64,000 nucleotides of DNA, from IMG/VR virus record IMGVR_UViG_3300025133_000024; one strand, written 5' to 3'. The DNA comes from a virus. Positions 23,883 to 63,383 of this stretch are shown in pieces. Position numbers and translations under genes: made by a program. The first letter of the stretch is position 1. Each line of letters opens with the position of its first letter. The notes below the pieces were generated by a model. It had not been told where the DNA came from. It saw nothing but the letters and a program-made list of their open reading frames with translations, and made no database searches.

Positions 23883-24053
23883 TCATTTTTTTGCAAAATT
23901 ATTTTTCATAAGACAAAACTTCAGTGCAGCCATTAACATTATATTCAATTTCATTTCCTTTCTTTTTCGCAAAATTATCATGTTTGTATACAAACTCAGA
24001 GCTAAATTTCCCTTAGAAGTGTAAAAGTAATGACCTTTTTTAGCTATTTTCAT
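23883..24053 (-). pseudogene. frameshifted KG[DE]L small-protein family member
   Basis: MKIAKKGHYF start; family C-terminus EVLSYEK* lies in -1 frame after an A5 run. Confidence 0.5.
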
Positions 24054-24252
24054 CTTTGTCCTCATAAGAAATATATTTATAGTGATTATGGAGACATCTG
24101 TTCGTTACAATACTCGTATCCTCATACCTCTCTATACCAACTATAAAATATTTTGGGTCTTTATATATGACTAAAAATTCGTTTTTGTTTAGTCTAAGAT
24201 TTATGAGATATTCATAATCAAAGTTTGATATTGACAAAGCACCTTTACTCAT
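24040..24252 (-). CDS. small KG[DE]L...LxY family protein
   Basis: MSKGAL...YISYEDKDENS. Confidence 0.6.
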   Translation of the reverse strand: MSKGALSISNFDYEYLINLRLNKNEFLVIYKDPKYFIVGIERYEDTSIVTNRCLHNHYKYISYEDKDENS

Positions 24253-24430
24253 TTTCTTCCTCGTATGTTAAAATGTGAAAATAAGGGTTGTTATGAACAC
24301 TTGATTTCATTTCAATAATTTGCGATCCTGTGGGGATAATATACAACCTTTTATTATTTTTTAATATTAAATGAACAGAATTAAAAACCTTATCCAATAA
24401 AACAGTTCCATTATCATAAAGTGACTTCAT
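24245..24430 (-). CDS. small KG[DE]L...LxY family protein
   Basis: ends ILTYEEENE. Confidence 0.55.
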   Translation of the reverse strand: MKSLYDNGTVLLDKVFNSVHLILKNNKRLYIIPTGSQIIEMKSSVHNNPYFHILTYEEENE

Positions 24431-24431
24431 G

Positions 24432-25316
24432 TTACCACCTACAATATTCAGTTTTATAAAATGAACAGAATTTACAAGAATCTCGATTCTTTGGGAACAA
24501 ATTCAACTCATCACTTTTGATAACTTTGCTGAGGAGGGAGAGAGCGTTGCTTGTTTTTTTGTTGCCCGAAGAGATTCTTAACAACTCAACCTTTTCTTCC
24601 TTTGCTGTTCTCTTGAGAAGAATAAAATAAGTCTCAACGTCCTTTTTATCCCAGTTGTATTTGTTGCACAGAAAGTTCTTGTATAACGTCAATTGATAAG
24701 TTATTTTGGGGTCTGTTTTTTTCTTAAGGTTCCAGCCCCAAGATGTTGTTTTAAAATCGATAATATGAATTTTATTGTCTTTTTTGGTTTTTAGAATCAA
24801 ATCCACAAAACCTGTGAAAACATATCCCTTTTGCTTCAGGGGCGTATAAATTCTGTCTTCACATCCTAGAACTTCATAATCACCAAAGTATTCTTTCAAA
24901 CAAGGAAGAATCAAGTTTGAAATTTCTTGACCTTGAAGTCTCATCTCAGAAAGTAGTTTTTTATTAAAAGTTTTATAAAGATTGTCTTTGAAGTGTTTTA
25001 AGGTGGCAGGATAAGTGTTTAGTTTTTGTTCTGTCAGTTTCTTGTTATTGTAGAACTCGATGAAGAATTTTGAGGCTAGAAACAAAACAAGGCTTTTGTC
25101 ATAGTGTTCAACAAAAGCCTTATCAAAATTTTCTGTTAGGTTTTCTAATGCGATTTGCTCACATATATCATGAATTACATTTCCAAAAATAGTATATTCA
25201 TTAGCCGTGAACGAAGAAAGTTTTTCTCGATATGAGAGTTTATATCTGTATGGGCACTCAATCCATGTTTTTATCGCTGAGTATGATATTTTTCTTTTGG
25301 GTTTTTTTAGATTCAT
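24432..25316 (-). CDS. PD-(D/E)XK exonuclease (RecB/Cas4-like)
   Basis: ECPYRY, GFVDLIL, IIDFKT, QLTLY, C-terminal CKFC..C. Confidence 0.9.
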   Translation of the reverse strand: MNLKKPKRKISYSAIKTWIECPYRYKLSYREKLSSFTANEYTIFGNVIHDICEQIALENLTENFDKAFVEHYDKSLVLFLASKFFIEFYNNKKLTEQKLNTYPATLKHFKDNLYKTFNKKLLSEMRLQGQEISNLILPCLKEYFGDYEVLGCEDRIYTPLKQKGYVFTGFVDLILKTKKDNKIHIIDFKTTSWGWNLKKKTDPKITYQLTLYKNFLCNKYNWDKKDVETYFILLKRTAKEEKVELLRISSGNKKTSNALSLLSKVIKSDELNLFPKNRDSCKFCSFYKTEYCRW

Positions 25317-25569
25317 TTTTCTTCTTTTTACATAATTTTTCTTTCAACAAAAACTTAAAATTCCCTTCTAGTTTGTTCACATCCCAATTGCATACATAAT
25401 CAACCTCTCCAAGATAATTCTCAATGTTATAGCCTTTGTCTGTTAATTCTTTTTCTGCGTCCTTCCAGGAATACGCAAATTTCGCGTGCCTTGCTAGTAC
25501 TCGTGCTTTTAATATAACACGTAGGGACACCTCTTGGCAAGTCTTTTTTATTTTTTTTTCTTTAAACAT
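25258..25569 (-). CDS. hypothetical protein
   Basis: ORF. Confidence 0.5.
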   Translation of the reverse strand: MFKEKKIKKTCQEVSLRVILKARVLARHAKFAYSWKDAEKELTDKGYNIENYLGEVDYVCNWDVNKLEGNFKFLLKEKLCKKKKNESKKTQKKNIILSDKNMD

Positions 25570-26260
25570 TTTGGCCCGTTACCTCCATCTCTAAGTCCTT
25601 GATTCTATTGAACAAATTTGGACACACCACTTCAAGTCTCTCTTTACCGGCTAAATAATAATGCTCAAACCCATTGGCAAAATACTCTCTCAGAGATGTT
25701 GCAGCATAGGGAGAATAGAACAAATCTTGAGTAAAAGCTTCCAATTTATCATAACCGATGTGGTGATAAAACAACTCATCTATTTCTTCGTCATAATCAG
25801 GCGAATGGAACTTGTTATACAACTGTTTATTAAAGTTTAGCCCTTTATTTGACAAGGTTTGATAAAGATTATATCTTTTTTCAATAAATTCACCTTCAAG
25901 AGTTTTATCACCATAAATTAGGTTGTAATATCTTTCTTCTAGAGCATGACCCAATTCATGAACAACATCATCTAAAAAATCTGATTCTGATTCTTGTCGA
26001 TTTGTGACATAAATTGCATTATCTTTGAAGATAGCATTAATTTCTCGTTGTTCGAATTCTTTAATATGAGCAACATAAATCCCATCAATCGCATTAAAAT
26101 ATCTCGGCGGGATATTTTTTTTAACATAATCGACAATATAATTTATATTAAAGAATTCAGGAAGAGAATGAACAATCGTCATTTGACAATTATTAGTTAT
26201 TTCAACAATGCTTTGTTTGTTTTTTTCAGGAATTGCTTTCTTTATATATTCTAAAATCAT
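25562..26260 (-). CDS. zinc metallopeptidase-like (HExxH)
   Basis: VVHELGHALE, downstream REYFANGF. Confidence 0.7.
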   Translation of the reverse strand: MILEYIKKAIPEKNKQSIVEITNNCQMTIVHSLPEFFNINYIVDYVKKNIPPRYFNAIDGIYVAHIKEFEQREINAIFKDNAIYVTNRQESESDFLDDVVHELGHALEERYYNLIYGDKTLEGEFIEKRYNLYQTLSNKGLNFNKQLYNKFHSPDYDEEIDELFYHHIGYDKLEAFTQDLFYSPYAATSLREYFANGFEHYYLAGKERLEVVCPNLFNRIKDLEMEVTGQNV

Positions 26261-26517
26261 TATTTTTTACCTTCTTCATCTTTTACTTCTTCTTTATCTT
26301 GAAGGGCTTGATTGTATCCTCGAAAAAAATTCTCTTCAGCTAAAATCTGAAGAAACTCAGGAAATTCTTCTGAGAATATGTCGAAGACCATTTCAACATC
26401 AACTTTGTTATCTTCGGGTTTTAATTTTTCTCCTGTATATTCAACAATCAAATCTCGCAAAGTAATATTTTCTTCCGATGTTGTTAAAAGTTTTTTAAGC
26501 AATGGATGTTTAAGCAT
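26260..26517 (-). CDS. hypothetical protein
   Basis: ORF with SD. Confidence 0.6.
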   Translation of the reverse strand: MLKHPLLKKLLTTSEENITLRDLIVEYTGEKLKPEDNKVDVEMVFDIFSEEFPEFLQILAEENFFRGYNQALQDKEEVKDEEGKK

Positions 26518-26528
26518 GATATTTTCCT

Positions 26529-34907: not shown

Positions 34908-35099
34908 TTATTTGGAATATGTGAGTCTTTTTGTGCTTGTTAAGAATAGAGGGCTTTGTTCTTTAAAAACAAAGATTTCTTTGGTTCTGGTGTATATTTC
35001 GATGCTTGTTCTGTTGTCAAGATAAAGAATACAAACACCAGAACCAAGAAATAATTCACCCTTTTTTACTTCTGATTCAACTTCTTTTGTCGTTAACAT
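34908..35099 (-). CDS. small KG[DE]L...LxY family protein
   Basis: KKGELF...LTYSK. Confidence 0.6.
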   Translation of the reverse strand: MLTTKEVESEVKKGELFLGSGVCILYLDNRTSIEIYTRTKEIFVFKEQSPLFLTSTKRLTYSK

Positions 35100-35104: not shown

Positions 35105-35323
35105 TTATTGCTCCTTTGGATATACAAGTCGATGATGTTTATATGCTAGAATATCTGATAACTTTTTAATAATCTCCACTGTATTTGAATTTTTATAGAA
35201 AATAAATTTTGTTTTAGAATCAAGATATAAAACAATAATGTTTTTTTGAAAAGCATTTTTCGAGTTTTCATCTTTTAACCACATTTCACCTTTTTTTACT
35301 GTTGATACTCCTATCGAAAACAT
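35105..35323 (-). CDS. small KG[DE]L...LxY family protein
   Basis: KKGEMW...LVYPK. Confidence 0.6.
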   Translation of the reverse strand: MFSIGVSTVKKGEMWLKDENSKNAFQKNIIVLYLDSKTKFIFYKNSNTVEIIKKLSDILAYKHHRLVYPKEQ

Positions 35324-35565
35324 CTTGGACTCCCATCCTCGTATGTTAAAAGCTCTCTTTCGTACCCTTTCCTTTCCAAAAACAACCTCACCGGCAACTT
35401 AACATTTAATTTCCGAATACTTGAATGAACATTCCTTAATGTATTTTCCAAAATAATAAACATATCTTCGGTTAAATGCAAAACCATATAAGAATCGCCC
35501 CTTCTTATGTTCCTACTTAACCCGACATCACCACATTTAAATGTTTTATCCGTCATATTTTTCAT
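35311..35565 (-). CDS. small KG[DE]L...LxY family protein
   Basis: FKCGDV...LLTYED. Confidence 0.6.
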   Translation of the reverse strand: MKNMTDKTFKCGDVGLSRNIRRGDSYMVLHLTEDMFIILENTLRNVHSSIRKLNVKLPVRLFLERKGYERELLTYEDGSPRCFR

Positions 35566-35740
35566 AACTCAATTTATTGCCTCCATTAATAAAATCAAGA
35601 GCTTTCGACTCATTTTGGGAATGAATTCTACCAGAAACCAAAGAAATCCTTATATATTGACCTGGACGGAGATAAAGAAGCAAATTCTTATTATAATGTC
35701 TTATAAATCCTTTGTGAGACCTAACGAATTTTTTTAACAT
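35546..35740 (-). CDS. small KG[DE]L...LxY family protein
   Basis: HKGFI...LSYEK. Confidence 0.55.
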   Translation of the reverse strand: MLKKFVRSHKGFIRHYNKNLLLYLRPGQYIRISLVSGRIHSQNESKALDFINGGNKLSYEKYDG

Positions 35741-36290
35741 ATTCCACTCCTTTTAAAACCCATTTCAAAGGACATACAATAGCAAACCATTCCAATCCCT
35801 TGTGAAGAACCCTATCCGTCAATGAATACCCTTTATTATGCATCATCAATGCCAAAATACAATAATTAATGCCATCCATTAACGTATCCTCAATCTTCTC
35901 ACCCACAACTGATAACTTTTCATTCTTTTCAACCAATGTCTCCATTCTCTTCAATTTGTCATATAAACGAACCATAATTCCTGGAATGCCCATGGCAACA
36001 AACGAATCACCATAATCATTGTTCTTTTTCTCAAACAAATCTTGCAACTCATCCAAAACCTGCCCCACAGACATACCAGAACGAATCACCAAATCCTGCA
36101 TCTGCGATTCAAATAAAGTTGATAAAACCTCGAAGACTTCATTGGGTTTTGTTCCAACCCATGTCTTGTTATACAACCTCGTGCATGTCTCCAATAACTC
36201 AACCCTACCATTAACAAGAACATGACGGCTTCTGTTTCTTCTCAACTCGTCTTTCAATTGTTTCGACACTTCTTTATACTTTTTAATCAT
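35721..36290 (-). CDS. DUF1599 / nucleotide-modification-associated domain protein
   Basis: FEKKNNDYGDSF, VRLYDKLKRM, IEDTLMDGINY. Confidence 0.8.
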   Translation of the reverse strand: MIKKYKEVSKQLKDELRRNRSRHVLVNGRVELLETCTRLYNKTWVGTKPNEVFEVLSTLFESQMQDLVIRSGMSVGQVLDELQDLFEKKNNDYGDSFVAMGIPGIMVRLYDKLKRMETLVEKNEKLSVVGEKIEDTLMDGINYCILALMMHNKGYSLTDRVLHKGLEWFAIVCPLKWVLKGVEYVKKIR

Positions 36291-36522
36291 CTTTTTTATA
36301 CTCCAATATAATACAATGAGAATCAATTATCTCTTGTTTGTTCCGAAATAATAGTTCTACTATCATCACCTGTTTATCGTATATTGTTAATGTACTTTGA
36401 CGTTGGTAACTTCCCATTGCATTTTTATTTTTGTTATTTAAAATTATTCTACAATATTTATATCTATTATGAGAATGCTTCCCTTCATCATACAATATCA
36501 TGTCTCCCTTAGAAAGTTTCAT
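36283..36522 (-). CDS. small KG[DE]L...LxY family protein
   Basis: SKGDMILY...LEYKK. Confidence 0.6.
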   Translation of the reverse strand: MKLSKGDMILYDEGKHSHNRYKYCRIILNNKNKNAMGSYQRQSTLTIYDKQVMIVELLFRNKQEIIDSHCIILEYKKDD

Positions 36523-36713
36523 TTTTTATCTCCATAAAATAAACATGCCTCTTTCATGTCTCTCGGCACTGCCAATGTTCTGCCTTGAACCCCTATCCTT
36601 CTTTTTATATGAACATCAATATACAAATAAGAGTCTCCCATAGACAAAGCAATAAAATTAGAAATTGGAGAACAATATAAGTTGCCATATCCCAAACGAA
36701 ACATTTTATTCAT
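36519..36713 (-). CDS. small KG[DE]L...LxY family protein
   Basis: YGNLY...LFYGDKK. Confidence 0.55.
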   Translation of the reverse strand: MNKMFRLGYGNLYCSPISNFIALSMGDSYLYIDVHIKRRIGVQGRTLAVPRDMKEACLFYGDKK

Positions 36714-36864
36714 ATCTTAAAAGTCCCTTACTTGACCAATACGCGCCTCTTTTTATTTTTACTGGATGACCCAGAGAATGATATATAATCAATTCATAAC
36801 CACCATCCAAAAATAAAATTGTTAAAATCTTTGCTGGACACATACGAACAGTTCCTTTTTTCAT
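36706..36864 (-). pseudogene. frameshifted small-family member
   Basis: MKKGTVRM... in one frame, GLLRYE* in +1 frame. Confidence 0.5.
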
Positions 36865-36874
36865 AATCTTTTTT

Positions 36875-37075
36875 TTAATCATATTTTAGAATATCTCCAC
36901 TAATTTCTCTATAATATAAATCCCAACGACACTTCTGGATATATGATGCATTATGAGAAATATAAAGAATTTTGTTATTCTCTAATTTTAATTCTATAAA
37001 GTTATGAAATAGAGAATAATATAACGAGCCTTTTTTAATTTTGCCTTTACTTCTTTTATAAACTTTGTCTTTCAT
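36875..37075 (-). CDS. small KG[DE]L...LxY family protein
   Basis: KKGSLY...ILKYD. Confidence 0.6.
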   Translation of the reverse strand: MKDKVYKRSKGKIKKGSLYYSLFHNFIELKLENNKILYISHNASYIQKCRWDLYYREISGDILKYD

Positions 37076-37533
37076 CCTGCTGACTCCAATCCATCCGACC
37101 AATCTCTGTTGCAAAACCATTCAAAATAAGTTCCAATATACCTGGACATTTGTTTTTTATAATTATTAATGTTTGCTGAGGATAGATTTAATCTCTTTGA
37201 TAACCTCCATCCACGCTCCCATGCATCAAACTCTTCCCTAATCACCTCCATCCGATAAACATATGAACGCTCCTTTCTATAATCCTCCAATGCCTCAACC
37301 TGCTTGTGATAAACAAAATTACCCTTCTTCATAGAATTCTTGTCAATCAAATAATGACCGCACTCATGCAATAACTCATATAATTGGTTTTCAAAAGAAT
37401 ATGATGTGTTATATTTTATATAACCATGATGAGGATTATACTCACCCTCAGTCTTCTTGTCAGAATATAAATCAATTCCCTTTTTACCAATCCAACACTT
37501 CAAAACCTCAATGTCATTTTTGAAATTACTCAT
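37072..37533 (-). CDS. HExxH metallopeptidase-like (ImmA/IrrE-like)
   Basis: LLHECGHY, EEFDAWERG. Confidence 0.7.
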   Translation of the reverse strand: MSNFKNDIEVLKCWIGKKGIDLYSDKKTEGEYNPHHGYIKYNTSYSFENQLYELLHECGHYLIDKNSMKKGNFVYHKQVEALEDYRKERSYVYRMEVIREEFDAWERGWRLSKRLNLSSANINNYKKQMSRYIGTYFEWFCNRDWSDGLESAG

Positions 37534-37741
37534 ATGATAACACCAAAATATTACATCCCTCAAAAGATTCTTTATCATTTCGAAAATAATACAAATGCAA
37601 ATCCTCAACTCGAAGAATATTAAGCCCACTAGCATAAACAAACACAGAAGAAGCATTATCAGTTAAAAATAAATCAAGATAATCATCTGATTTGAAAATA
37701 ACCAAATCTCCCTTCTTAAAATCATTTTTATTATTGCTCAT
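37526..37741 (-). CDS. small KG[DE]L...LxY family protein
   Basis: KKGDLV...VLSYE. Confidence 0.65.
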   Translation of the reverse strand: MSNNKNDFKKGDLVIFKSDDYLDLFLTDNASSVFVYASGLNILRVEDLHLYYFRNDKESFEGCNILVLSYE

Positions 37742-37928
37742 CTTTATCTCCATATGTCAAAACTTTTGGGTCATCCTCATCAACCCATGTTCTCTTAACA
37801 GAATCGAATACATAAACACATTTACTTGATATTTTTACAAAAGATGTTTCGCTTAATAATAAAGATATAACGTGCCTAGAACCACCAACCAAATAAACAT
37901 CACCCTTCTTCAAAATCTGATATTTCAT
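37731..37928 (-). CDS. small KG[DE]L...LxY family protein
   Basis: KKGDVY...VLTYGDKDEQ. Confidence 0.65.
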   Translation of the reverse strand: MKYQILKKGDVYLVGGSRHVISLLLSETSFVKISSKCVYVFDSVKRTWVDEDDPKVLTYGDKDEQ

Positions 37929-38128
37929 GTCTCACCTTCATATGTTAAAATTTCATAATCATTTTCAATCAAAACCCACTTTTTACGGTTTTCATAGAAT
38001 AATGCCTTTTCCAAAATAACATGACCGGGACCTTGAAAAGAAAGCATAAACTTTTCCGAAATTATCAAATCAAATTTTACAAATCCATTCAAAATACAAA
38101 GGTCTCCTTTAGTCCACTCAGTTTTCAT
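37925..38128 (-). CDS. small KG[DE]L...LxY family protein
   Basis: TKGDLC...ILTYEG. Confidence 0.65.
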   Translation of the reverse strand: MKTEWTKGDLCILNGFVKFDLIISEKFMLSFQGPGHVILEKALFYENRKKWVLIENDYEILTYEGET

Positions 38129-38288
38129 GAGATAATTGTCCCACAGGAATGTTATTGATTTTTATTTCAAATCCTTTTGTAAAATCCATAATATCAACCA
38201 ACCAATCCCTTTCTGATGGACCCAATATTAACGAAAATATAAAAATAGAATCAATGTCATGAAAAATTAACTCTCCCTTCCTATTCAT
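38118..38288 (-). CDS. small KG[DE]L...LxY family protein
   Basis: RKGELI...LSHEN. Confidence 0.55.
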   Translation of the reverse strand: MNRKGELIFHDIDSIFIFSLILGPSERDWLVDIMDFTKGFEIKINNIPVGQLSHEN

Positions 38289-38490
38289 CAACTTTATCTC
38301 CATATTTTAAAAGTTCACATTCTGTATCTCTATAATAACTCTTTAAATATTCATCTCTCTTCCATGAATAAAAACCAATACAAGACTTCACTAAATTAAT
38401 CTCTAATGACATCCCATTATCAGACAAACAAAGGTCAATAATTCCTTCATACGCAATACAAACATCTCCCTTTCTTAAAAACTTTCTCAT
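38281..38490 (-). CDS. small KG[DE]L...LxY family protein
   Basis: RKGDVC...LLKYGD. Confidence 0.65.
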   Translation of the reverse strand: MRKFLRKGDVCIAYEGIIDLCLSDNGMSLEINLVKSCIGFYSWKRDEYLKSYYRDTECELLKYGDKVDE

Positions 38491-38602
38491 CCACTTTCAT
38501 ACCTCAAAAATTTATAAAACCTTTCTTTTTATACAAATAAAGAAACATCCCACACAATATATCCGATACACACACCATCGAACCCTTTCCTTCAGCTTTC
38601 AT
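38487..38602 (-). pseudogene. shortened, frameshifted duplicate of 38592-38792
   Basis: MKAEGKGSMV...; FLRYESG* in -1 frame. Confidence 0.45.
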
Positions 38603-38804
38603 ATCTTAAAATCCCACTCTCATCTACCCAAGGCCAGTTCTTCGGTTGTCGTTTTGATATTTTTGTATAAACAACCTTATTATCTTCAATCTTTAAATAA
38701 AATGTCATATTGGAATGCTCACTCGTTTCACCCAATATAAGGTTAACAAAAACGTTGTTCAAAACCATCGAACCCTTTCCTTCAACTTTCATATCTTAAA
38801 ATCC
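38574..38804. repeat. 41-bp direct repeat (38574-38614, 38764-38804) spanning stop/start junctions
   Basis: 40/41 identical. Confidence 0.85.
38592..38792 (-). CDS. small KG[DE]L...LxY family protein
   Basis: GKGSMV...ILRYES. Confidence 0.6.
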   Translation of the reverse strand: MKVEGKGSMVLNNVFVNLILGETSEHSNMTFYLKIEDNKVVYTKISKRQPKNWPWVDESGILRYES

Positions 38805-38813
38805 TTTTCTCGC

Positions 38814-39023
38814 TATATTTTTGTCCTTTTCAAAACCTTGGAAAAATTTTGCTGTTATATTTTTGTCCTTTTCAAAACCTTGGAAAAATTTTGCTGTTAT
38901 ATTTTTGTCCTTTTCAAAACCTTGGAAAAATTTTGCTGTTATATTTTTGTCCTTTTCAAAACCTTGGAAAAATTTTGCTGTTATATTTTTGTCCTTTTCA
39001 AAACCTTGGAAAAATTTTGCTGT
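38814..39023. repeat. 5 x 42-bp perfect tandem repeat (iteron-like)
   Basis: unit tatatttttgtccttttcaaaaccttggaaaaattttgctgt. Confidence 0.95.
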
Positions 39024-39113
39024 GTGTTATTTGTGGGTCTGGCCCCCGCCACCCCCTAAAAGCCCAACCAAAGACTCATATTCCGGCCTATGCCACATAG
39101 GGGGAGGGGGGGG

Positions 39114-39147
39114 TGGCACGTTCCTTGCTTTGCCAAGGAACGTGCCA
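39114..39147. repeat. perfect 14-bp-stem hairpin
   Basis: tggcacgttccttg-ctttgc-caaggaacgtgcca. Confidence 0.85.
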
Positions 39148-40429: not shown

Positions 40430-40455
40430 GAGGCAGGGGGAAGTTTTTTACATAT

Positions 40456-47143: not shown

Positions 47144-47172
47144 GCCCCATGAGACAAAGCTTCTCATGGGGC
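47144..47172 (-). terminator. intrinsic terminator
   Basis: GCCCCATGAGA-7nt-TCTCATGGGGC + T-rich tail. Confidence 0.8.
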
Positions 47173-47266
47173 GGATAAAAGGATATTAGGTTTGGTCTCT
47201 AATGTTATTCATAAGGTACCTTTGTAGGTATGGGGTTGTTGGGAAGTTTTTTTTTGGGGTTATTGT

Positions 47267-47929
47267 TTATTTGTCGTAAAGAGTACCAAAAGTCTCGAAA
47301 GGAGTAGTTGCGGTGATACAGGCGACGCACACATATTCATCGGAGTTGTTTTTGTTTTCGGCTTTCCAGACATTGGAAGAGACTTCCGTCCAAGCGGTCA
47401 ACTCGATGTCTTTGTAGCGGCGCTCCGCGTTCTTTTTGAGTTGTTGGATGCGAACATCCTTTTGCTCTTGTTGTTGTTGAGAGAGATAGGTACGGACGGC
47501 GCTTTCTTTGATTTCTTTCCCATCCTCTTGTTGCGGGAATTGTTCATTGATAGCTTCGGTGAGAAGCGGGATGTTCCAGGATTTATTTTCGGTGGTTTCG
47601 CCTTTGTCGTTTTCGGTGACGGGGGGTGTTTGGCTCAGGAGGGTTGCGACGTAGGCTTTGTGTTCATCCGAGAAGTTGCTGGTACGGCCACGGTGTTTGG
47701 ATTCGAGAGCGGCGTAACCTTCTTCTTCAAACTTCTTTTTGAGGCTGTAGACCGTGTTCATCTGAACACCGTTGTGAAAAGCGACAGCGAGGGCCTTTTG
47801 ACCTTCCGCCAGTTCGAGGAGGATTTTGGCACGGGTTCGTTTTTTCGGGTGGTTTCCTTCGTCGTTCATGATTTGGGTGAGAGTGTCGATTTGAGTCTGG
47901 GTCAGGTCGAATTGGCTTTTCTTGCTCAT
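47267..47929 (-). CDS. HTH protein resembling IS630 transposase N-terminus (no DDE domain)
   Basis: RAKILL..AEG...TVY..KKKFEEEG..AL...RGR..F......L...P...SW....L. Confidence 0.7.
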   Translation of the reverse strand: MSKKSQFDLTQTQIDTLTQIMNDEGNHPKKRTRAKILLELAEGQKALAVAFHNGVQMNTVYSLKKKFEEEGYAALESKHRGRTSNFSDEHKAYVATLLSQTPPVTENDKGETTENKSWNIPLLTEAINEQFPQQEDGKEIKESAVRTYLSQQQQEQKDVRIQQLKKNAERRYKDIELTAWTEVSSNVWKAENKNNSDEYVCVACITATTPFETFGTLYDK

Positions 47930-47981
47930 GGTTTTTCTATCCTATGGTCTTTGTTGTTGGGCTTTATTGCCCGATGAATTC

Positions 47982-48010
47982 AAGATAAGAATTCAAGTTT
48001 TGTTTGTCAA
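47982..48010 (-). promoter_or_regulatory. sigma70-type promoter
   Basis: TTGACA-17-TATCTT + GGGC-AATAAA-GCCC. Confidence 0.75.
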
Positions 48011-49912: not shown

Positions 49913-49940
49913 AATATAAGCAGTGTTGAAAGATTGTCAA
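49913..49940 (-). promoter_or_regulatory. sigma70-type promoter
   Basis: TTGACA-16-TATATT. Confidence 0.7.
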
Positions 49941-50845
49941 GGGTTTTTGAAATATTTTTCGAGTTTTTTTGCTGTTTTGTTTTTGATTTTCAGTTTTGCA
50001 AAAATTGTTTTCATTCTCGATTTCCAATTGTTCCTGGGAATCGTGACTTGATTGAGAATGAAAGTGTTGTCTGTAATGATGATTTGATAATCATCAATAT
50101 TGCGAACAATGACCTCACTTTCTACATGAGAGTCCTTGATGACCGGAACAATATTGATGGTTGGTGCGCTGTCTTTGGATTCAAATTCAACCCAACAGTT
50201 TTGAATTTTGGAGGCACCAATTCTAGAACCAAGGATTGTTGAACCATTGGCAATTGCTGACTCAGAAAATTCAGAATTTCTCGCAACAGAATTAAAAAAC
50301 CTTGTGTTTTCCAAAGAAGAATCGAGAACACTGGAGTTTAAAATGTGAGAATCATAAATATCACAACCGAGAATCAAGGTATCAGATATTTTACATCCAT
50401 CCATGTTGTTTTCGGTTAGAGTTGCTTGAAAAATTTGAGAGTTGTCAATTGTTGAATTATCAATTTTTGATTTGTCAATTATTGAATTGAAAATTGATGA
50501 CTCACCTTCAATTTTGGAACAAAAAACAAAAGAGTTTCCATAAACAGCAACATCCCTTTCAATCCAGCTTCCATCTTGAGCTAATTGATATTCATGTTCA
50601 ATCCAACCACCAAGTTCATCATCCGAAATTCTTTTGATTTGGTACAAGATTCTGTCACCTTGTTTCTTGCTTTCTCCTGAAAACTCCCAAAACTTTTCTT
50701 CAATCTTCAAAAGTTTTATCATCCGAATCATAGAAAGCGATAAATGACCTGCAATTGCTTGCTCAAAACATGAAAAACAAATACCCTCAGATACAGATTT
50801 TAAACTTACTCCCTTTCCACAGACATCACAAGAAAAAGTAGCCAT
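49937..50845 (-). CDS. Zn-ribbon + pentapeptide beta-helix protein, paralogue of 45340-45993
   Basis: CDVC..CFSC; YQIKRISDDELGGWIE..QDGSWI; xSxIx repeats. Confidence 0.75.
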   Translation of the reverse strand: MATFSCDVCGKGVSLKSVSEGICFSCFEQAIAGHLSLSMIRMIKLLKIEEKFWEFSGESKKQGDRILYQIKRISDDELGGWIEHEYQLAQDGSWIERDVAVYGNSFVFCSKIEGESSIFNSIIDKSKIDNSTIDNSQIFQATLTENNMDGCKISDTLILGCDIYDSHILNSSVLDSSLENTRFFNSVARNSEFSESAIANGSTILGSRIGASKIQNCWVEFESKDSAPTINIVPVIKDSHVESEVIVRNIDDYQIIITDNTFILNQVTIPRNNWKSRMKTIFAKLKIKNKTAKKLEKYFKNP

Positions 50846-50895
50846 CTTTGATTTTCCTTTTCCCAAAATTGTTTGGGCGTTTTTATTATGACATA

Positions 50896-50937: not shown

Positions 50938-51123
50938 TTATTTTTCCTTATTTTCTTCATAATTCAACGAAAAATAAACTACATCATTCTCTTCAAGTTC
51001 TCTATTGATAACAGTAGCACTTCCAAATTTACGAACATTCAAAAGTGCTTTTGGACCCAAAAATAAACAAATATAGTTAGCTCCAAACTCATGTCGCAAA
51101 AGCCTCATATTCCCTTTTTTCAT
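50938..51123 (-). CDS. small KG[DE]L...LxY family protein
   Basis: MKKGNM...LNYEE. Confidence 0.6.
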   Translation of the reverse strand: MKKGNMRLLRHEFGANYICLFLGPKALLNVRKFGSATVINRELEENDVVYFSLNYEENKEK

Positions 51124-51332
51124 TTTTGCTTCTCCTCTTTATAGTCAAGTTGAGTATAATAACCCAATATTGATTTCATTTCTGAAATATAATCATAATA
51201 AATTCCTACAAATCCAGAATGTTTTTGAAAACCCAAATACCAATATCGTTCTGAATCTGTTTTTAAAACCAATTCAAGCCTTTCATCGGTGTCGCATAAA
51301 AACACCATTCCCTTTTCAAAGTCACTTATCAT
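51120..51332 (-). CDS. small family protein, close paralogue of 51829-52059
   Basis: SDFEKGM...YTQLDYK. Confidence 0.7.
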   Translation of the reverse strand: MISDFEKGMVFLCDTDERLELVLKTDSERYWYLGFQKHSGFVGIYYDYISEMKSILGYYTQLDYKEEKQK

Positions 51333-51640
51333 TATTGTTTCTCCTCATAAGTTAATAAAGTTTCATCTTCAAGAACATTAATCGAATATTTATCTATTTT
51401 TGTTTTTTTTCTATCAACATAAAGAGAAGTTAAACCCCTAGATTCATCTTCGTAATTCTTAGCGTATAAAAAAGAATAATCAAACTCTCTAAAGCCATCC
51501 TCCAATTTAATATAGCAACAACCTGTCCCCAAATCAATCACTAAAGCTTCAAGATGGTCATTTTTATTTGACAATACTAATTGAAGATCTGGTGCAGAAA
51601 AAACATACTCTTCAATTTGCAAACTACCTTTTGTTGTCAT
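51332..51640 (-). CDS. small KG[DE]L...LxY family protein
   Basis: TKGSL...LLTYEE. Confidence 0.65.
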   Translation of the reverse strand: MTTKGSLQIEEYVFSAPDLQLVLSNKNDHLEALVIDLGTGCCYIKLEDGFREFDYSFLYAKNYEDESRGLTSLYVDRKKTKIDKYSINVLEDETLLTYEEKQ

Positions 51641-51842
51641 AATCCAACCTCAGTAAAACTTTTGGATGTGGAGCAGTCACAAAGTTATCTTCATCGAAAC
51701 AAAAACTTTGGTCTCTGTCAATTTCGTCTTGAATAAAAAGAAAATGAAAATTCTCAAGCAAAAGAACCTTTCCATCCAATTGCAAATAAATCTTTGCTAA
51801 AATCTTGTCATTTCTTCTTATATACAAATCACCCTTTTTCAT
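51624..51842 (-). CDS. small KG[DE]L...LxY family protein
   Basis: MKKGDLY...LDYD. Confidence 0.65.
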   Translation of the reverse strand: MKKGDLYIRRNDKILAKIYLQLDGKVLLLENFHFLFIQDEIDRDQSFCFDEDNFVTAPHPKVLLRLDYDNKR

Positions 51843-52059
51843 CTTGTTTCTCCTTTTTGTAATCAAGTTGTGTGTAAAATTCCAATATTCCTTTCATCGA
51901 TTTTATAGGGTAAAACGAAATCGCCACTTCGACATCATGTTCCGGGTTGGTGCCAATACCAAGAAATGTATAACGATTTGATTCTACTTCCAAAACCAAT
52001 TCAATGCGAGAACCCTTATTTGAAAGAAACATCATTCCCTTTTCAAAGTCACTTTTCAT
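51829..52059 (-). CDS. small family protein, close paralogue of 51120-51332
   Basis: SDFEKGM...YTQLDYK. Confidence 0.7.
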   Translation of the reverse strand: MKSDFEKGMMFLSNKGSRIELVLEVESNRYTFLGIGTNPEHDVEVAISFYPIKSMKGILEFYTQLDYKKEKQDEKG

Positions 52060-52102
52060 TTTTGCCTCAAATGTTTTTGTTAAAAGCTATGACCATAGGT
52101 GC

Positions 52103-52211: not shown

Positions 52212-52400
52212 TTATTTATTGCGTTTATATTGTTGGGTGTGGATGTTGTAGAATGATATGTCGTTTAGATATGTTAAAATTTCTATATGGTCGTTTTTTT
52301 CAAAGAAAATCATTTGAACAATGTCACCTGAGGATGTTACTAGACACAGAGTAGGAAGAGTTGTGTTTCTATACAGAATATCGCCCTTTTGAATTTTCAT
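52212..52400 (-). CDS. small KG[DE]L family protein
   Basis: QKGDILY. Confidence 0.55.
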   Translation of the reverse strand: MKIQKGDILYRNTTLPTLCLVTSSGDIVQMIFFEKNDHIEILTYLNDISFYNIHTQQYKRNK

Positions 52401-52438
52401 TTTGTACAGAGAAGATTTGGAGAAATAACTTTTCTTTA

Positions 52439-52642
52439 TCATTTGTTTTCCAAAAATTGTTTGTTATCAGGATTTTCGAAAAATTGAATCATTTGTTTCA
52501 GAAAGTCTTTGGAGATTTCAACATAACCCTCAGAATTATATGAAAATATGTTCTTTTTGTTCAAATCAAAAAATTCAACACTCTCTTTTCTAATGTTTAT
52601 CCCAACTTTCCCAGATTGAGCTTCTTTAACAATTACACTCAT
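52439..52642 (-). CDS. hypothetical protein
   Basis: ORF, ATGA overlap. Confidence 0.55.
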   Translation of the reverse strand: MSVIVKEAQSGKVGINIRKESVEFFDLNKKNIFSYNSEGYVEISKDFLKQMIQFFENPDNKQFLENK

Positions 52643-53219: not shown

Positions 53220-53432
53220 TTATGGGAACCTCTTTCTATTTTTGTATTCTAATGTATCATAATTCCTTTCCAATATTTCCTTGTCATCCCCACTATCAAA
53301 AACAATACTAATATAGTTATTTGCAACTTCTAATTCAATAACTTCATCGTCACTCCTTATGTCAGCCCTCAAAAATATTGAGTTACCTTCTCTTAACAAT
53401 AATAATGTTCCTTTTTTATAATTTTCACTCAT
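53220..53432 (-). CDS. small KG[DE]L...LxY family protein
   Basis: KKGTLL...LEYK. Confidence 0.6.
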   Translation of the reverse strand: MSENYKKGTLLLLREGNSIFLRADIRSDDEVIELEVANNYISIVFDSGDDKEILERNYDTLEYKNRKRFP

Positions 53433-53640
53433 CCTCATACCCCATAACATGATAAGCTTTATCTTCTCTACGTTTTAATCTCTTTAAAAAATTTGGAAGG
53501 AGACAAGAAGCATTCCAATCAAAAATATCCACACAAATGTTCTGAGAAATCACACGAAAAGCCAACTTTTCCCTTCCTAAAAGCAAATGAATAACATTTT
53601 CATGTCCATTGTATAAAAGCAACATTCCTTTATTTTTCAT
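53425..53640 (-). CDS. small KG[DE]L...LxY family protein
   Basis: NKGMLL...MGYEDE. Confidence 0.6.
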   Translation of the reverse strand: MKNKGMLLLYNGHENVIHLLLGREKLAFRVISQNICVDIFDWNASCLLPNFLKRLKRREDKAYHVMGYEDE

Positions 53641-53641: not shown

Positions 53642-53791
53642 CTATTCATCCTCATATGTCAATATGTGATAATCATTTTTCAAAGACTCTAAGTCACCAG
53701 CGTCAAAAATCAACTCAATTCTCAAATAAAGAACATTTCGGTCTTTAAACAAAAATAATGTTCCTTTCTCAAAATTTCTGACCATCTTCAT
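53642..53791 (-). pseudogene. doubly frameshifted small-family member
   Basis: FEKGTLF start; ILTYEDE* end in another frame. Confidence 0.45.
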
Positions 53792-54285: not shown

Positions 54286-54504
54286 TCAGGGGTCTTTGTG
54301 AAAGGGATATGAAAGGTGGGAGCATATAGACCTGTCAATGTCTTGCATTGAATCTTCTACAGTATATTTTGCCATTCTAGTTTCGTTTTCATAAAGTTCA
54401 ATTGAATAATGGTTATCGTAGGTATTTGGTCGAGTAGATTTGATAGTATTACAAACCAACTCAATTCTTTCATTATAGAGGATTAAACTGCCTTTTTTAA
54501 TCAT
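54286..54504 (-). CDS. small KG[DE]L...LxY family protein
   Basis: MIKKGSLILY...LSYP. Confidence 0.65.
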   Translation of the reverse strand: MIKKGSLILYNERIELVCNTIKSTRPNTYDNHYSIELYENETRMAKYTVEDSMQDIDRSICSHLSYPFHKDP

Positions 54505-54691
54505 TTGTTAAATGCTCACATTCTTTATATTCAATATGCAATAAGGAAACCTCGATAGAATAGTTTTGAAGATATATGGCATCAAAAGAAATATCAAAAT
54601 CAAAAGAGATGTGGCTATCTTCTTGTTTGTTACAAGATAATACAATTTCTAGACTATTATTATATAACAACATGTCACCTTTTTTAATCAT
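54497..54691 (-). CDS. small family protein, tandem paralogue of 54684-54878
   Basis: MIKKGDMLLY...KECEHLTND. Confidence 0.7.
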   Translation of the reverse strand: MIKKGDMLLYNNSLEIVLSCNKQEDSHISFDFDISFDAIYLQNYSIEVSLLHIEYKECEHLTND

Positions 54692-54878
54692 TTGTTAAAT
54701 GCTCACATTCTTTAGAGCCAATATGTGACAAAGTGACATTAACAGAATAATCTTGAAGTACTCCACGTAATAAAGGAATACTATAATCAAATGAAAGGTG
54801 ATTTCTTTCATTCTTTTCACAAGATAAAATAATTTCCAGATTATTATCGTACAATAACAAGTCACCTTTTTTAATCAT
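54684..54878 (-). CDS. small family protein, tandem paralogue of 54497-54691
   Basis: MIKKGDLLLY...KECEHLTND. Confidence 0.7.
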   Translation of the reverse strand: MIKKGDLLLYDNNLEIILSCEKNERNHLSFDYSIPLLRGVLQDYSVNVTLSHIGSKECEHLTND

Positions 54879-55423
54879 TGTTGCAAGCCCTTTATATAAT
54901 AATAAAATTCATGCCAATTGGAAACACAATGCGAACCATCTGTTTCTCTGTTCCAGGGTCTTTTCATAACAACTGAAATGCCCTTGTTTGCTTTCCATGC
55001 TTTTAAAGTTTCTGATTTATCTTCTAAAATGATTTCTCCAGGTTTTGCCAACAAATGTTTTTTACAACAAAAGATAACATTTTCCTGAGGGATGAATGGA
55101 AGATGTTCTCTTAACCATTCTCTTTTATCCCTTTCACAAGTTTCAGCAGCAATGTGGGGGGCTGTTACAATATAAACTTCATGTTCTTCATCAAGTTGTT
55201 GGATAATTTCAATTGCATTTTCATATGGTTTTAAATTTGGTCCAAAAAATCCAGGTTCACGCAAATAATTCCTTATTGCATCTCCAATTTTAACATGATT
55301 TCCAAGGTTGAAAGTTGTTATCTCTTCTCTTGTTACATTGTCATCAAAGTCTTTATTGTACCTTGATAACCAAGGCTCAACAAGATTAACAATGACCCCA
55401 TCCATATCCAAATATATTCTCAT
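54875..55423 (-). CDS. 5'(3')-deoxyribonucleotidase (HAD, NT5C)
   Basis: YLDMDGV, IVTAP, KREWLREHLPF, LED, PWN. Confidence 0.9.
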   Translation of the reverse strand: MRIYLDMDGVIVNLVEPWLSRYNKDFDDNVTREEITTFNLGNHVKIGDAIRNYLREPGFFGPNLKPYENAIEIIQQLDEEHEVYIVTAPHIAAETCERDKREWLREHLPFIPQENVIFCCKKHLLAKPGEIILEDKSETLKAWKANKGISVVMKRPWNRETDGSHCVSNWHEFYYYIKGLQQ

Positions 55424-55638
55424 GTGATTCCTTTCTTTTTGTACCTTAGCTTTATTAAATCAAGTTCATGATAACGTCGATAATCTGGTATTAATTGAAC
55501 CCTATCTTTATCACCTCTATTATGAATTGTTAAAGTTTTACCATTGTGTAATATTAACCTTATCTCCATATAATAACTTTTGTCCTGAATATAAGGGTAG
55601 CAAATTACTGTTCCTGGTTCAAAATAATGCATTTTCAT
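55420..55638 (-). CDS. small KG[DE]L-like family protein
   Basis: EPGTVI...LRYK. Confidence 0.55.
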   Translation of the reverse strand: MKMHYFEPGTVICYPYIQDKSYYMEIRLILHNGKTLTIHNRGDKDRVQLIPDYRRYHELDLIKLRYKKKGIT

Positions 55639-55870
55639 GTTTACTATAACTCAAGTATAATATATGTTTGTAAACTTCTTGTCCTTCATTTACACCTATT
55701 CTAGGATTTATATCCAATCGAGGAAATGATTTGCTATAGTTGAAAAATAAATCATGTTCATTACCGAGATATAATCTTAAGAAACAAAAGTCTTTATTCA
55801 CTAGTATATCACCTTTGTTTCCTAAGGTTATTTTTTTAAAGGGTTTACGAGGTTTCATCAACTTCAACAA
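55619..55870 (-). CDS. small KG[DE]L...LxY family protein
   Basis: NKGDIL...LSYSK. Confidence 0.6.
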   Translation of the reverse strand: MLKLMKPRKPFKKITLGNKGDILVNKDFCFLRLYLGNEHDLFFNYSKSFPRLDINPRIGVNEGQEVYKHILYLSYSKHENALF

Positions 55871-56249
55871 CTACCTCATGTTCTTCTTCAACAGTCAAAA
55901 GGTCGAGAAGTTCTTCACCTGTAATCTGAGAGGAATCAATCAGAGCTTTGATAGACGTAAGAGCATATTTTTTGCTTTTTTCCTTTTGCTCTTTTTCGAT
56001 TTCTTTCCGAAGTCCTTTCTCTTCATCTGTTTCTGGTCTTGTTCCCCAAATGTTATATTTGGCTTTTGAACCTTGATTTGTATCAGCCATCACAAACTCA
56101 ACAAGTCTTGCTTTATGAGACTCTTCAGTGCTTTTCCAATCTTTCTTTAGCTCTTTCATAAGAAGGTCAAAATCGTCTTCGGTCTTGACATCCACAAAAC
56201 TTAGAAACGCAACTTTTTCTCGGATAATATCGTTCTTGTTATTGCTCAT
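55845..56249 (-). CDS. hypothetical protein
   Basis: start MSNNKND shared with 37526-37741. Confidence 0.65.
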   Translation of the reverse strand: MSNNKNDIIREKVAFLSFVDVKTEDDFDLLMKELKKDWKSTEESHKARLVEFVMADTNQGSKAKYNIWGTRPETDEEKGLRKEIEKEQKEKSKKYALTSIKALIDSSQITGEELLDLLTVEEEHEVVVEVDETS

Positions 56250-56430
56250 CTTTGTCTCCATATGAGTTAATATATTTTGGTTCTATAAAGGTTTCAACTT
56301 CTGTGTCATACTTATCTTCAAAGGCTAACTCTATGTTCTCTTCTTTTAATAATATTAAGGAAAGGTTTCCTTTTAAAGCTAATTCAATAGAATCACTCCA
56401 TAGAATTAAAGTCCCTTTGTTTATCTTCAT
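56239..56430 (-). CDS. small KG[DE]L...LxY family protein
   Basis: NKGTLI...NSYGDKDEQ. Confidence 0.65.
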   Translation of the reverse strand: MKINKGTLILWSDSIELALKGNLSLILLKEENIELAFEDKYDTEVETFIEPKYINSYGDKDEQ

Positions 56431-59044: not shown

Positions 59045-59263
59045 TCAGTCTCTTTTTGTTTTTGTTGGTTTGTATACCACGCCTATCCAACTCATGGGAA
59101 TCCACAACATTTCTCTTGTCTCAAAAAAAACAAAACAATGGTCCATGTGCAAATCAAACTTGATAATGATACCAGAAAGAGCTTGACCCATAGCGTCAGG
59201 ATACATACGACAAAGCATATCACCAACTTTAACTTGACAATCATTGCCAGTGATATACTTCAT
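59045..59263 (-). CDS. small SH3/Tudor-like protein
   Basis: KVGDM...GIIIK...CFVFF...WIP. Confidence 0.6.
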   Translation of the reverse strand: MKYITGNDCQVKVGDMLCRMYPDAMGQALSGIIIKFDLHMDHCFVFFETREMLWIPMSWIGVVYKPTKTKRD

Positions 59264-62150: not shown

Positions 62151-62225
62151 CACACCCGATAGGATTTGAACCTATGACAAATGAATTAGAAAACCGATGC
62201 TCTATCCTGACTGAGCTACGAGTGC
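62151..62225 (-). tRNA. tRNA-Arg(TCT)-like gene with unpaired anticodon stem (possible pseudo-tRNA)
   Basis: acceptor, D and T arms pair; anticodon stem TCGGT/TTCAT has 1 WC + 1 GU pair. Confidence 0.6.
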
Positions 62226-62236
62226 TTTCATTAACC

Positions 62237-62264
62237 AATATAAGCATCAATCAGTCAATGTCAA
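62237..62264 (-). promoter_or_regulatory. sigma70-type promoter for tRNA-like gene
   Basis: TTGACA-16-TATATT. Confidence 0.7.
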
Positions 62265-62278
62265 GAGCTTGGAGGGAA

Positions 62279-62479
62279 TTATTTTTTCTTTTTTTTATTG
62301 TAAGTTCCTAAGAGTTTTATAGAGGGATGACAATACACATCTGGGGATTCTATAGAAAGCCCTGTTAAACTTTTAGAAACATAAAGAACGATGTATTGTC
62401 CATCCTTAGTGCCCAATATTAAATCACAAAACCTATCCATTTTAATTAAGTCACCTTTTGAACGCTTTAGTTTAGACAT
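62279..62479 (-). CDS. small KG[DE]L family protein
   Basis: SKGDLI...LGTY. Confidence 0.6.
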   Translation of the reverse strand: MSKLKRSKGDLIKMDRFCDLILGTKDGQYIVLYVSKSLTGLSIESPDVYCHPSIKLLGTYNKKKKK

Positions 62480-62813
62480 TTTTTCTTGGTCTCCCTCTTT
62501 TCTTTTTCATATTCCAAGGAACTTCTTTGTTGTTTCTATCAATATAAAAAGTTTTATAAGGAAACTTTCTCACCCAATGTTTGGCTTCTTTGGCATCTTC
62601 AAAAGATTTTTCATATAAAAATTTATCTTCGCCGGTTGAACCTGAACAATAGGTTTCTCCACAATCTGACCAACCTTCTTCTTCCAAAACTCTCCTCACT
62701 GTTCTAACAACTCGACCATCAAAGCCACACACTTCAAAGCGAAATCTGGTCTCATCGCGATTCTTGGCTTCACCCATTTGCCAAATATAACAAACACCGT
62801 TTTTATCAGACAT
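62472..62813 (-). CDS. hypothetical protein with C-terminal AT-hook
   Basis: KKRGRPRK; start trimmed to MSDKNG. Confidence 0.7.
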   Translation of the reverse strand: MSDKNGVCYIWQMGEAKNRDETRFRFEVCGFDGRVVRTVRRVLEEEGWSDCGETYCSGSTGEDKFLYEKSFEDAKEAKHWVRKFPYKTFYIDRNNKEVPWNMKKKRGRPRKNV

Positions 62814-63018
62814 CTTCTTTCTCCTCTGTGTTATTGTATATACACATCTTTTCTCTACACTGATGAACATAAACACCATCATACATGAACAAATGACGAA
62901 TATATTTATCACCAATTCTAAGCATATTATAACTCTTATTATCAGGATTGTGTGATATTACTAATTCTATTGCCTCAGCAAATCTATATAAATTTCCTTT
63001 TCTATTTTTCAACTTCAT
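62806..63018 (-). CDS. small KG[DE]L family protein
   Basis: RKGNLY. Confidence 0.6.
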   Translation of the reverse strand: MKLKNRKGNLYRFAEAIELVISHNPDNKSYNMLRIGDKYIRHLFMYDGVYVHQCREKMCIYNNTEEKEDV

Positions 63019-63217
63019 TCTCATCCTCATCTTCATACTGTAAATGTTGACCAACTCCAGAACCATCCAACCAAAACCTTAAAATCTCTTTTTCGTCGGT
63101 CCAAGAACCCATTGAAACCCTTTTAAAATAGGATATATTAAAAATTCTGGAATCTCCGATGTAAAGGCTAATTAGAAATCTATTTTTTCGTAAAAATAAC
63201 TCACCCTTCTTTATCAT
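63002..63217 (-). CDS. small KG[DE]L...LxY family protein
   Basis: KKGELF...LQYEDED. Confidence 0.65.
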   Translation of the reverse strand: MIKKGELFLRKNRFLISLYIGDSRIFNISYFKRVSMGSWTDEKEILRFWLDGSGVGQHLQYEDEDENEVEK

Positions 63218-63383
63218 CTTCATCCTCATACTGTAAAACTAATTTACTCGATTTCACATAATAACTTAAATTAACCCAAGGATGCAAAACGAGGATGTTC
63301 CCACCAAAGGATAAAGTTATGTTGTCATCCAAACACAGTTCAAAAAGATTTTTGTTTGGAAAAAATATCAATTGACCTTTCAT
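63201..63383 (-). CDS. small KG[DE]L...LxY family protein
   Basis: MKGQLI...LQYEDED. Confidence 0.65.
   Translation of the reverse strand: MKGQLIFFPNKNLFELCLDDNITLSFGGNILVLHPWVNLSYYVKSSKLVLQYEDEDDKEG

Follow-up and report, generated by a model that had tools for sequence, protein, structure and literature searches.

A divergent family of small proteins in tandem arrays in the genome of an uncultured marine phage

A stretch of 64,000 nucleotides from an uncultured marine phage of approximately 180 kb (IMG/VR record IMGVR_UViG_3300025133_000024; the whole stretch analysed is referred to as the window) carries an expanded family of small proteins. Thirty-six open reading frames (ORFs) of 49 to 102 amino acids, with a median length of 68, lie in four co-directional arrays on the minus strand and have three motifs in common: K-G-x-h-x-h (h, hydrophobic) near the N-terminus, an h-x-L-x-L strand and L-x-Y at the C-terminus. 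Together the genes occupy 7,512 nt, or 11.7% of the window. A preliminary description of this DNA had proposed about 35 divergent paralogues in four clusters, which is a fair count when read as 30 supported and six possible members, all on the minus strand. The extreme divergence that it reported is borne out by a median pairwise identity of 21.7%, values above 40% being reached in only 3 of 630 pairs. It is highly probable that the genes represent a real family of tandem origin organised in coupled operons. The fuller explanation, that these are lineage-specific small modules in coupled arrays which may act as binders early in infection, stands at about an even chance of being correct.

The family and its arrays

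The motifs were confined to one strand. A three-part regular expression, requiring the KG motif within the first 32 amino acids, h-x-L-x-h no more than 24 amino acids after it and h-x-[YF] within the last 16, matched 26 of 114 small ORFs on the minus strand and none of 165 on the plus strand, against a shuffle expectation of 0.56 ± 0.77. The same expression matched 2 of 188 small ORFs in a control comprising 50 kb of the unrelated T4-like cyanophage S-CRM01, in which the best match to the family hidden Markov model (HMM) was spurious (11.7 bits). The first HMM was built from 19 hand-picked seeds and iterated to convergence at 23 members. At E ≤ 0.01 it matched nothing on the plus strand and none of 2045 shuffled ORFs, and 22 of the 23 members were recovered at E < 0.01 in leave-one-out tests, near-duplicates being left out jointly. 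A further 13 weaker candidates were then included to give an alignment of 36 sequences (A2), with which 30 members, each left out in turn, outscored the whole set of 501 control ORFs, and 33 outscored the fifth-best control. The profile is thus specific, a property that the preliminary description had named as a check on the family. Three ORFs lack HMM support and are listed on motif and position only (35311–35565, 35546–35740 and 36519–36713), and three others are borderline (36706–36882, 52212–52442 and 23883–24065). The two internal leucines of L-x-L are present in 30 and 27 of the 36 members and a further L/I/V column is conserved, all of these positions being far from the gene junctions.

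Conserved residues are encoded by a mixture of synonymous codons. The conserved glycine is specified by GGA (15 members), GGT (14), GGC (4) and GGG (2), the lysine by AAA (18) and AAG (14) and the tyrosine by TAT (26) and TAC (7); synonymous codons are likewise mixed in the leucine columns. The ratio of non-synonymous to synonymous substitution rates (dN/dS) is 0.31 to 0.66 in the four closest pairs and approximately 0.3 in the closest two. These two observations indicate selection on a folded protein, and the ORFs are real proteins under constraint.

Adjacent members are tightly packed, 28 of the 36 ending between −26 and +5 nt from the start of the next gene. In most coupled members the final stretch of codons includes GAGG or GGAG: the codons for Y-E-D or Y-G-D read TAT-GAG-GA or TAT-GGA-GA, which places a Shine–Dalgarno (SD) sequence a few bases before the next ATG, itself often contained within the following GAT-GAx codons. 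At three junctions (24040, 38281 and 56239) this reading, judged by eye, needs a later in-frame ATG than that of the longest ORF. The eight uncoupled members mostly lack [EG][DE], and the tyrosine is kept in seven of them. It follows that L-x-Y belongs to the protein and that [EG][DE] is mainly the translation signal of the next gene. The C-terminal motif had been described initially as LxY[EG]; the L-x-Y portion holds as a protein motif, whereas [EG] is for the most part a ribosome-binding site, read in another frame, that serves the next cistron. A general caution is that an apparent protein motif in the packed operons of phages can be, in part, the ribosome-binding site of the following gene. 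The possibility that the K-G codons (AAR GGN) act as an internal SD sequence for a following M, L or V start was also considered and rejected, the spacing being approximately 3 to 4 nt and the glycine codons variable.

For most members the best BLASTP partner lies nearby in the genome (34908/35105, 51120/51829, 53220/53642, 54286/54497/54684 and 63002/63201), which points to local tandem duplication. Two pairs had been taken at first for recent duplicates. They are indeed the closest in the family, but they are old: 54684–54878 and 54497–54691 have 62.5% amino acid identity, a synonymous divergence (dS) of 0.79 and a dN/dS of 0.34, and 51120–51332 and 51829–52059 have 53 to 54% identity, a dS of 1.14 and a dN/dS of 0.31. 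With dS values of this size in the closest pairs, recent duplication can be discounted. All 36 copies are intact and none is pseudogenised. Junction segments of 32 to 51 nt are 80 to 94% identical where the gene bodies are not. The minus-strand stop/SD/start segment at 37717–37756 has 87.5% identity over 40 nt to that at 56225–56264, approximately 18 kb away, the flanking gene bodies being unrelated at the nucleotide level, and the second copy leads into a gene of 134 to 138 amino acids outside the family. Other such pairs are 54491–54538 and 54678–54725 (94% over 48 nt) and 52027–52064 and 51300–51337 (92% over 38 nt).

Distribution and predicted fold

The arrays continue beyond the window. 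In the 10 kb just upstream (L007), the HMM trained on the window found four to five more members, two at E ≤ 0.01 and the others as weak matches that carry the motif; a fifth array adjoins the four of the window. One lies at L007 8370–8570 (14.5 bits) and the others at 5851–6078, 7689–7928, 7909–8187 and 8153–8377, and most of them have the L-x-Y[EG] ending typical of the family. A DpnI-family nuclease gene and a patatin-like gene stand among these upstream members (L007 7141–7689, approximately 65.7–66.2 kb in window coordinates and hence outside it). The HMM found no member in the 10 kb that flank the window on its left, where the larger genes include some of tail or lysis type and others for an M23 peptidase and a protein of 1690 amino acids.

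The same phage has been assembled in several metagenomes, the contigs measuring 179,423 bp, 180,676 bp and at most 188,329 bp; its 180-kb contig is represented by JGI 3300008050 Ga0098052_1000001 and ENA ERZ27249009 k141_79560. The window is AT-rich, with a G+C content of approximately 26 to 46% per 2-kb block, and essentially all of its genes are on the minus strand. Recognisable among them are a sugar-nucleotide and glycosyltransferase block, a PD-(D/E)XK nuclease, a PIN-PhoH protein, a LamG-domain protein, a MoxR-type AAA ATPase with a VWA/metallopeptidase partner, NT5C and DUF1599; a gp55-type late sigma factor gave a weak match only (E 4e-4). No close cultured phage was found, in that a tblastn search with a neighbouring protein of 561 amino acids matched no phage record. 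A nucleotidyltransferase of 314 amino acids matched only distant phages (Lak, S-CRM01, Cr30 and Molly) at 34 to 40% identity, and the homologues of neighbouring proteins of 593 and 189 amino acids were themselves only. Scans for related phages in which the family might be counted returned none, both among IMG/VR viral contigs and, using the MoxR ATPase, among metagenomes. The other strain contigs found are 99.3 to 100% identical to the window, and hence neither orthologue divergence, between-strain dN/dS nor copy-number differences can be read from them.

Searches of Pfam, PHROGs and NCBIfam, anti-defence and host-takeover families included, yielded no family matched by more than one member and no match below E 1e-3. 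A profile search of 1.84 billion representative sequences returned the proteins of the phage itself and two long, probably spurious matches, and a word-indexed search of 5.8 billion proteins returned the proteins of the phage only. Searches of this size need approximately 36 bits, and true members score 2 to 40 bits when left out, mostly 10 to 30 (two leave-one-out tests), so that absence of the family outside this phage has been only weakly tested.

Two members from different clusters were modelled with AlphaFold2 using the paralogue alignment as input. The model of 37925–38128 has a predicted local distance difference test score (pLDDT) of 76.0 and a predicted template modelling score (pTM) of 0.64, with strands (E) and a helix (H) predicted at E10-13, E18-22, E27-32, E37-41, H51-55 and E58-61. 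That of 63002–63217 has a pLDDT of 79.7 and a pTM of 0.61, with elements predicted at E7-10, E15-21, E24-29, E35-38, H42-50 and E56-59. The same order, E-E-E-E-H-E, is thus predicted in both, as expected if the members have a fold in common, which the preliminary description had supposed; the input alignments are mostly common to the two models, which are hence not independent. A single-sequence model of 37925–38128 from the ESM Atlas was poor (pLDDT 0.41).

In SH3-like small barrels four strands are followed by a short helix and then by a fifth strand, and the N-terminal K-K-G-D-h-V-h presumably resembles the start of a KOW motif, which we treat as a lead only. The initial suggestion of an SH3/KOW-like barrel is compatible with the predicted order of elements and is unsupported by the database searches. 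Foldseek found no match at E ≤ 0.001 in PDB or BFVD, the best in BFVD having an E value of 0.11 to uncharacterised proteins; the ESM Atlas search gave scores of 0.80 to 0.82, at chance level; and VIA-align against 48,161 chains gave best Z scores of 4.7 and 4.2, below the level that the tool itself treats as meaningful. Among the weak structural matches of both models, FeoA (several entries), Lsm4, a capped Tudor domain, EF-P domain I and the SH3-like domain of IdeR recurred, the best Z scores to FeoA, Lsm4, Tudor or EF-P domain I being 3.3 to 4.4 and within noise. A Pfam hmmscan of 23 members at E ≤ 1 gave eight chance matches to single members and no KOW, SH3, Sm or Tudor domain, and the A2 profile matched nothing relevant among PDB sequences. 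The family therefore resembles the SH3-like small beta-barrels (FeoA, KOW, Sm/Lsm and Tudor) in size, in predicted element order and in the recurrence of weak structural matches, and differs from them in the lack of any sequence-profile match. An SH3-like fold may be taken as a reasonable lead, and no more.

Members of the arrays and neighbouring cassettes

Scores in the following account are leave-one-out HMM bits with A2, compared with the 501 control ORFs, and the genes and promoter candidates named are on the minus strand. Cluster 1 consists of 24245–24430 (19.6 bits; control maximum 7.8), 24040–24252 (14.6; control maximum 9.0) and the borderline ORF 23883–24065, which lies in the array with KG and h-x-L motifs and scores 5.4, under the control maximum; its true start is likely to be the internal MKIAKKG.

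Cluster 2 begins with 38592–38792 (15.9; control maximum 7.1), which adjoins a 42-bp repeat array, followed by 38281–38490 (20.7), the weak member 38118–38303 (7.5; control maximum 6.4), the first modelled protein 37925–38128 (26.9), 37731–37928 (21.2), whose tail junction is common to 56239–56430, and 37526–37741 (22.7). Next come 36875–37075 (14.6), the borderline 36706–36882, which has the motif and scores above the fifth-best control only (4.3), 36519–36713, a possible member by motif and position that scores below the controls (2.0), and 36283–36522 (25.2). Two further possible members by motif and position, 35546–35740 (4.3) and 35311–35565 (2.7, with KCGD and LLTYED), also score below the controls. 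The array closes with 35105–35323 (16.3) and 34908–35099 (18.7), the last being uncoupled, with the tail TYSK and 161 nt of gene-free sequence downstream. Embedded in this cluster is a gene for a protein of 153 amino acids (37072–37533) with an H-E-C-G-H (HExxH) motif and no PHROG match.

Cluster 3 comprises 56239–56430 (11.4; control maximum 9.4), 55619–55858 (16.7), 55420–55638 (12.4), 54684–54878 (17.9), a tandem duplicate of 54497–54691 (26.0), and the uncoupled 54286–54504 (21.7), the 5' 48 nt of which match the start region of 54497–54691 at 94% identity. These are followed by 53642–53791, the shortest form at 49 amino acids (24.1), 53425–53640 (19.5), the uncoupled 53220–53432 (14.8), which has tRNA genes downstream, and the borderline 52212–52442, above the fifth-best control only (7.1). 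ORF 52439–52642 lies within the cluster and is without the family motif. A sub-array then runs from 51829–52059 (26.8), the first gene behind a promoter candidate at 52130, through 51624–51842 (11.4), 51332–51640, which has a long insertion and reaches 102 amino acids (10.5; control maximum 8.1), and 51120–51332 (20.5), a paralogue of 51829–52059, to 50938–51123 (18.3).

Cluster 4 is headed by 63201–63383 (27.7), with the second modelled protein 63002–63217 (32.5), 62806–63018 (15.2) and the uncoupled 62279–62479 (12.1) behind it. The last has a tRNA gene downstream. For a tRNA-like gene at 62151–62225, ARAGORN gave an odd anticodon of two bases and named no amino acid; this gene scores 48.9 bits with the Rfam tRNA model and has a TTGACA promoter candidate of its own at 62264–62237. 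Away from the arrays, just after the VWA gene, an ORF of 72 amino acids (59045–59263) contains V-K-V-G-D-M-L close to the start and G-V-V-Y-K close to the end. It could be a very distant member in which V-G replaces K-G, but its score is only 7.7 bits.

Sigma70-type promoter candidates stand directly upstream of two arrays: TTGACA-17-TATATT at 63491–63463, heading cluster 4, and TTGACA-16-TATATT at 52130–52103, heading the 52059–50938 sub-array, each agreeing with the consensus at 11 of 12 positions. Consensus promoters were found only at array heads and not between coupled members, where no spacer exists.

Between clusters 2 and 3, a field at 40371–48010 on the minus strand contains at least 12 copies of a 59 to 71 nt element made up of a TTGACA-16/17-TATATT-type promoter and a GGGC-loop-GCCC stem-loop, each copy preceding an unrelated ORF of 58 to 90 amino acids. 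The elements look like the promoter-early stem-loop (PeSL) cassettes of T4-type phages, which flank ORFans in hyperplastic regions (PMC2839356, PMC4122927), and the arrangement at 40.3–48 kb fits the published description (PMC2839356). The early-cassette ORFs at 39–50 kb were considered as family members and rejected. Like the PeSL cassettes, the family consists of small genes without assigned function packed in variable regions behind sigma70-like early promoters, and it has short conserved boundary sequences between distant loci, seen at three junction pairs, which could mediate modular shuffling. In contrast to PeSL ORFans, which are unrelated and each have their own promoter and stem-loop, the family ORFs are homologous to one another and in 28 of 36 cases overlap or abut the next gene without a spacer; their conserved boundary is a coding stop/SD/start overlap and not a promoter.

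Other repeats occur in and beside this field. Five or six tandem 42-bp units at 38763–39034 lie upstream of, and extend into, the first gene of cluster 2, strain contigs differing by one unit (42 to 43 gap positions), and a hairpin with a perfect 14-bp stem is present at 39114–39147. Early ORFs are duplicated at 44965–45228 and 46726–46989 (87 amino acids; 300 nt at 92% identity) and at 39727–39999 and 40102–40359 (85 to 90 amino acids; 97 to 99% identity). The proteins encoded at 45340–45993 and 49937–50866 on the minus strand have a common N-terminal segment, ...IKRISD..GGWI....L.QDGSWI..., followed by long five- or six-residue N-S-[NTY]-V-[IT]-N repeats with a DNA period of 15 or 18 nt (45508–45852), and may constitute another small family of paralogues, of beta-helix type. 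Two independent assemblies of approximately 180 kb break inside the repeat-rich 39–48 kb region, an ENA contig starting near 39755 and a JGI contig ending at 47714, which could reflect assembly breakage at repeats or be a sign of genome termini.

Possible role and alternative explanations

The explanation that we favour is that a lineage-specific multigene family of proteins of 49 to 102 amino acids has kept a minimal scaffold in this uncultured marine phage: K-G before the first strand, L-x-L in the second, a hydrophobic residue in the third and L-x-Y in the last, with nearly all other positions and several loop lengths free to vary. The genes lie in head-to-tail, operon-like arrays, at least two of them behind candidate sigma70-type promoters read by host RNA polymerase and so probably early. 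Most copies appear to be translationally coupled, the acidic or glycine codons after the tyrosine spelling GAGG or GGAG for the next cistron, whose ATG usually follows in another frame. Growth proceeded mainly by old local tandem duplication, apparently with some exchange at the short stop/SD/start junctions, and the copies have since been held under purifying selection. Each copy may then fold into a small module with a target of its own, bound early in infection. A repertoire of small binders fits best because of the hydrophobic core with free surfaces, the variable loops, the spread of isoelectric points (pI), the probable early expression and the purifying selection, and also because the neighbouring genes are host-directed early genes. 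For such binders we infer host-takeover or counter-defence factors to be the most likely role, an assignment that is tentative and, taken specifically, somewhat short of an even chance. That the family is a germline-encoded binder library, in which one beta scaffold in many copies neutralises a different host defence or hub protein with each copy early in infection, is rather unlikely.

Several observations weigh against this explanation. The pI values range from 4.3 to 10.6, a spread that points to no one class of ligand. Pfam, PHROGs, NCBIfam, the PDB profile search and the two large protein searches gave no homologue whose function is known. The promoters are consensus matches only, from which the timing of expression is deduced, and the near-identical strain contigs show no sign of ongoing turnover. 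When the terminal motifs were removed, leave-one-out scores were 1.5 to 9.9 bits against a background top of 6.4, so that what the profile detects comes mainly from the K-G strand, the L-x-L strand and L-x-Y. Homology of the middle part rests mainly on the L-x-L column, the strand pattern and AlphaFold models derived from the same paralogue alignment.

Body-only scores hardly above background are what would be expected if the terminal motifs were kept by nucleotide constraint on a reusable stop/SD/start cassette, serving translational coupling and recombination, and the bodies were unrelated sequences captured between junctions, in which case there would be no single family or fold. The close identity of junction segments between differing bodies, the SD sequence after the tyrosine and the junction copy that leads into a non-family gene (56225–56264) would be explained in the same way. 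However, the K, G, L and Y columns are free at synonymous sites, the internal L-x-L leucines and the L/I/V column are conserved far from the junctions, the tyrosine is retained in uncoupled members and the AlphaFold models are confident and concordant, and so pure junction conservation is considered very improbable. The copies might alternatively be selfish or near-neutral filler, harmless mini-genes with their own coupling signals that spread by unequal crossing-over and have no individual host-directed function. The very large number of copies with no detectable function, the common junctions, which would favour in-register recombination, and the location of the arrays in regions whose other genes are largely small, unrelated ORFans are all compatible with filler; yet the duplicates are old (dS of approximately 1) and remain intact with a dN/dS of approximately 0.3, none of the 36 copies is pseudogenised, core residues are conserved across approximately 22% identity and, since the capsid limits the size of a phage genome, 11.7% of the window would represent a real cost. 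Filler of this kind is accordingly judged to be quite improbable.

A further alternative retains a folded family and changes its targets: the proteins would be small beta-barrels (Sm, KOW, Tudor or FeoA-like) that bind nucleic acids and thereby adjust transcription, translation or RNA decay in host or phage, in place of binding defence proteins. It draws on the predicted element order of SH3-like small barrels, on the recurrence of FeoA, Lsm4, Tudor domain and EF-P domain I in the weak matches of both models and on the presumed likeness to the start of KOW. Against it, all structural Z scores are at or below 4.7 and under the noise level of the tool, no KOW, SH3, Sm or Tudor match was obtained from Pfam at E ≤ 1 or from the PDB profile search, and half of the members are acidic, with pI values down to 4.3, a poor fit to general nucleic-acid binding. 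This alternative is also improbable.

Returning to the repertoire of small binders, comparable families are known in large eukaryotic viruses. The MGF100, MGF110, MGF360 and MGF505 families of African swine fever virus (ASFV) and the 'genomic accordions' of poxviruses are tandem divergent paralogues, generally tied to host range and immune evasion, that vary in copy number between strains. The likeness lies in tandem arrays of divergent paralogues within a viral genome; the differences are that those viruses belong to another realm and that there is no sequence relation. The strain contigs here, at 99.3 to 100% identity, are too alike for a comparison of copy number. If the binder library were true, it would be the phage counterpart of these multigene immune-evasion families, on a scaffold without known relatives.

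Capsid size constrains phage genomes and more than a handful of paralogues are rarely kept, which makes this family unusually large. Gene duplication within a large phage genome is also seen in the jumbo phage vB_PcaM_CBB, in which only 22 ORFs have any paralogue in 356 kb (PMC5259590), whereas here a single family has 30 to 36 copies in 64 kb and more outside the window. That nearly 12% of 64 kb has been kept intact under purifying selection after a dS of approximately 1 implies that every copy pays for itself. Should the copies be target-specific binders, they would provide a natural library in which to seek new host-takeover or counter-defence activities in marine bacteria, as well as a new small protein scaffold. 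They would also offer a test case for the growth of a family by tandem duplication with exchange at coding stop/SD/start junctions, as opposed to promoter cassettes.

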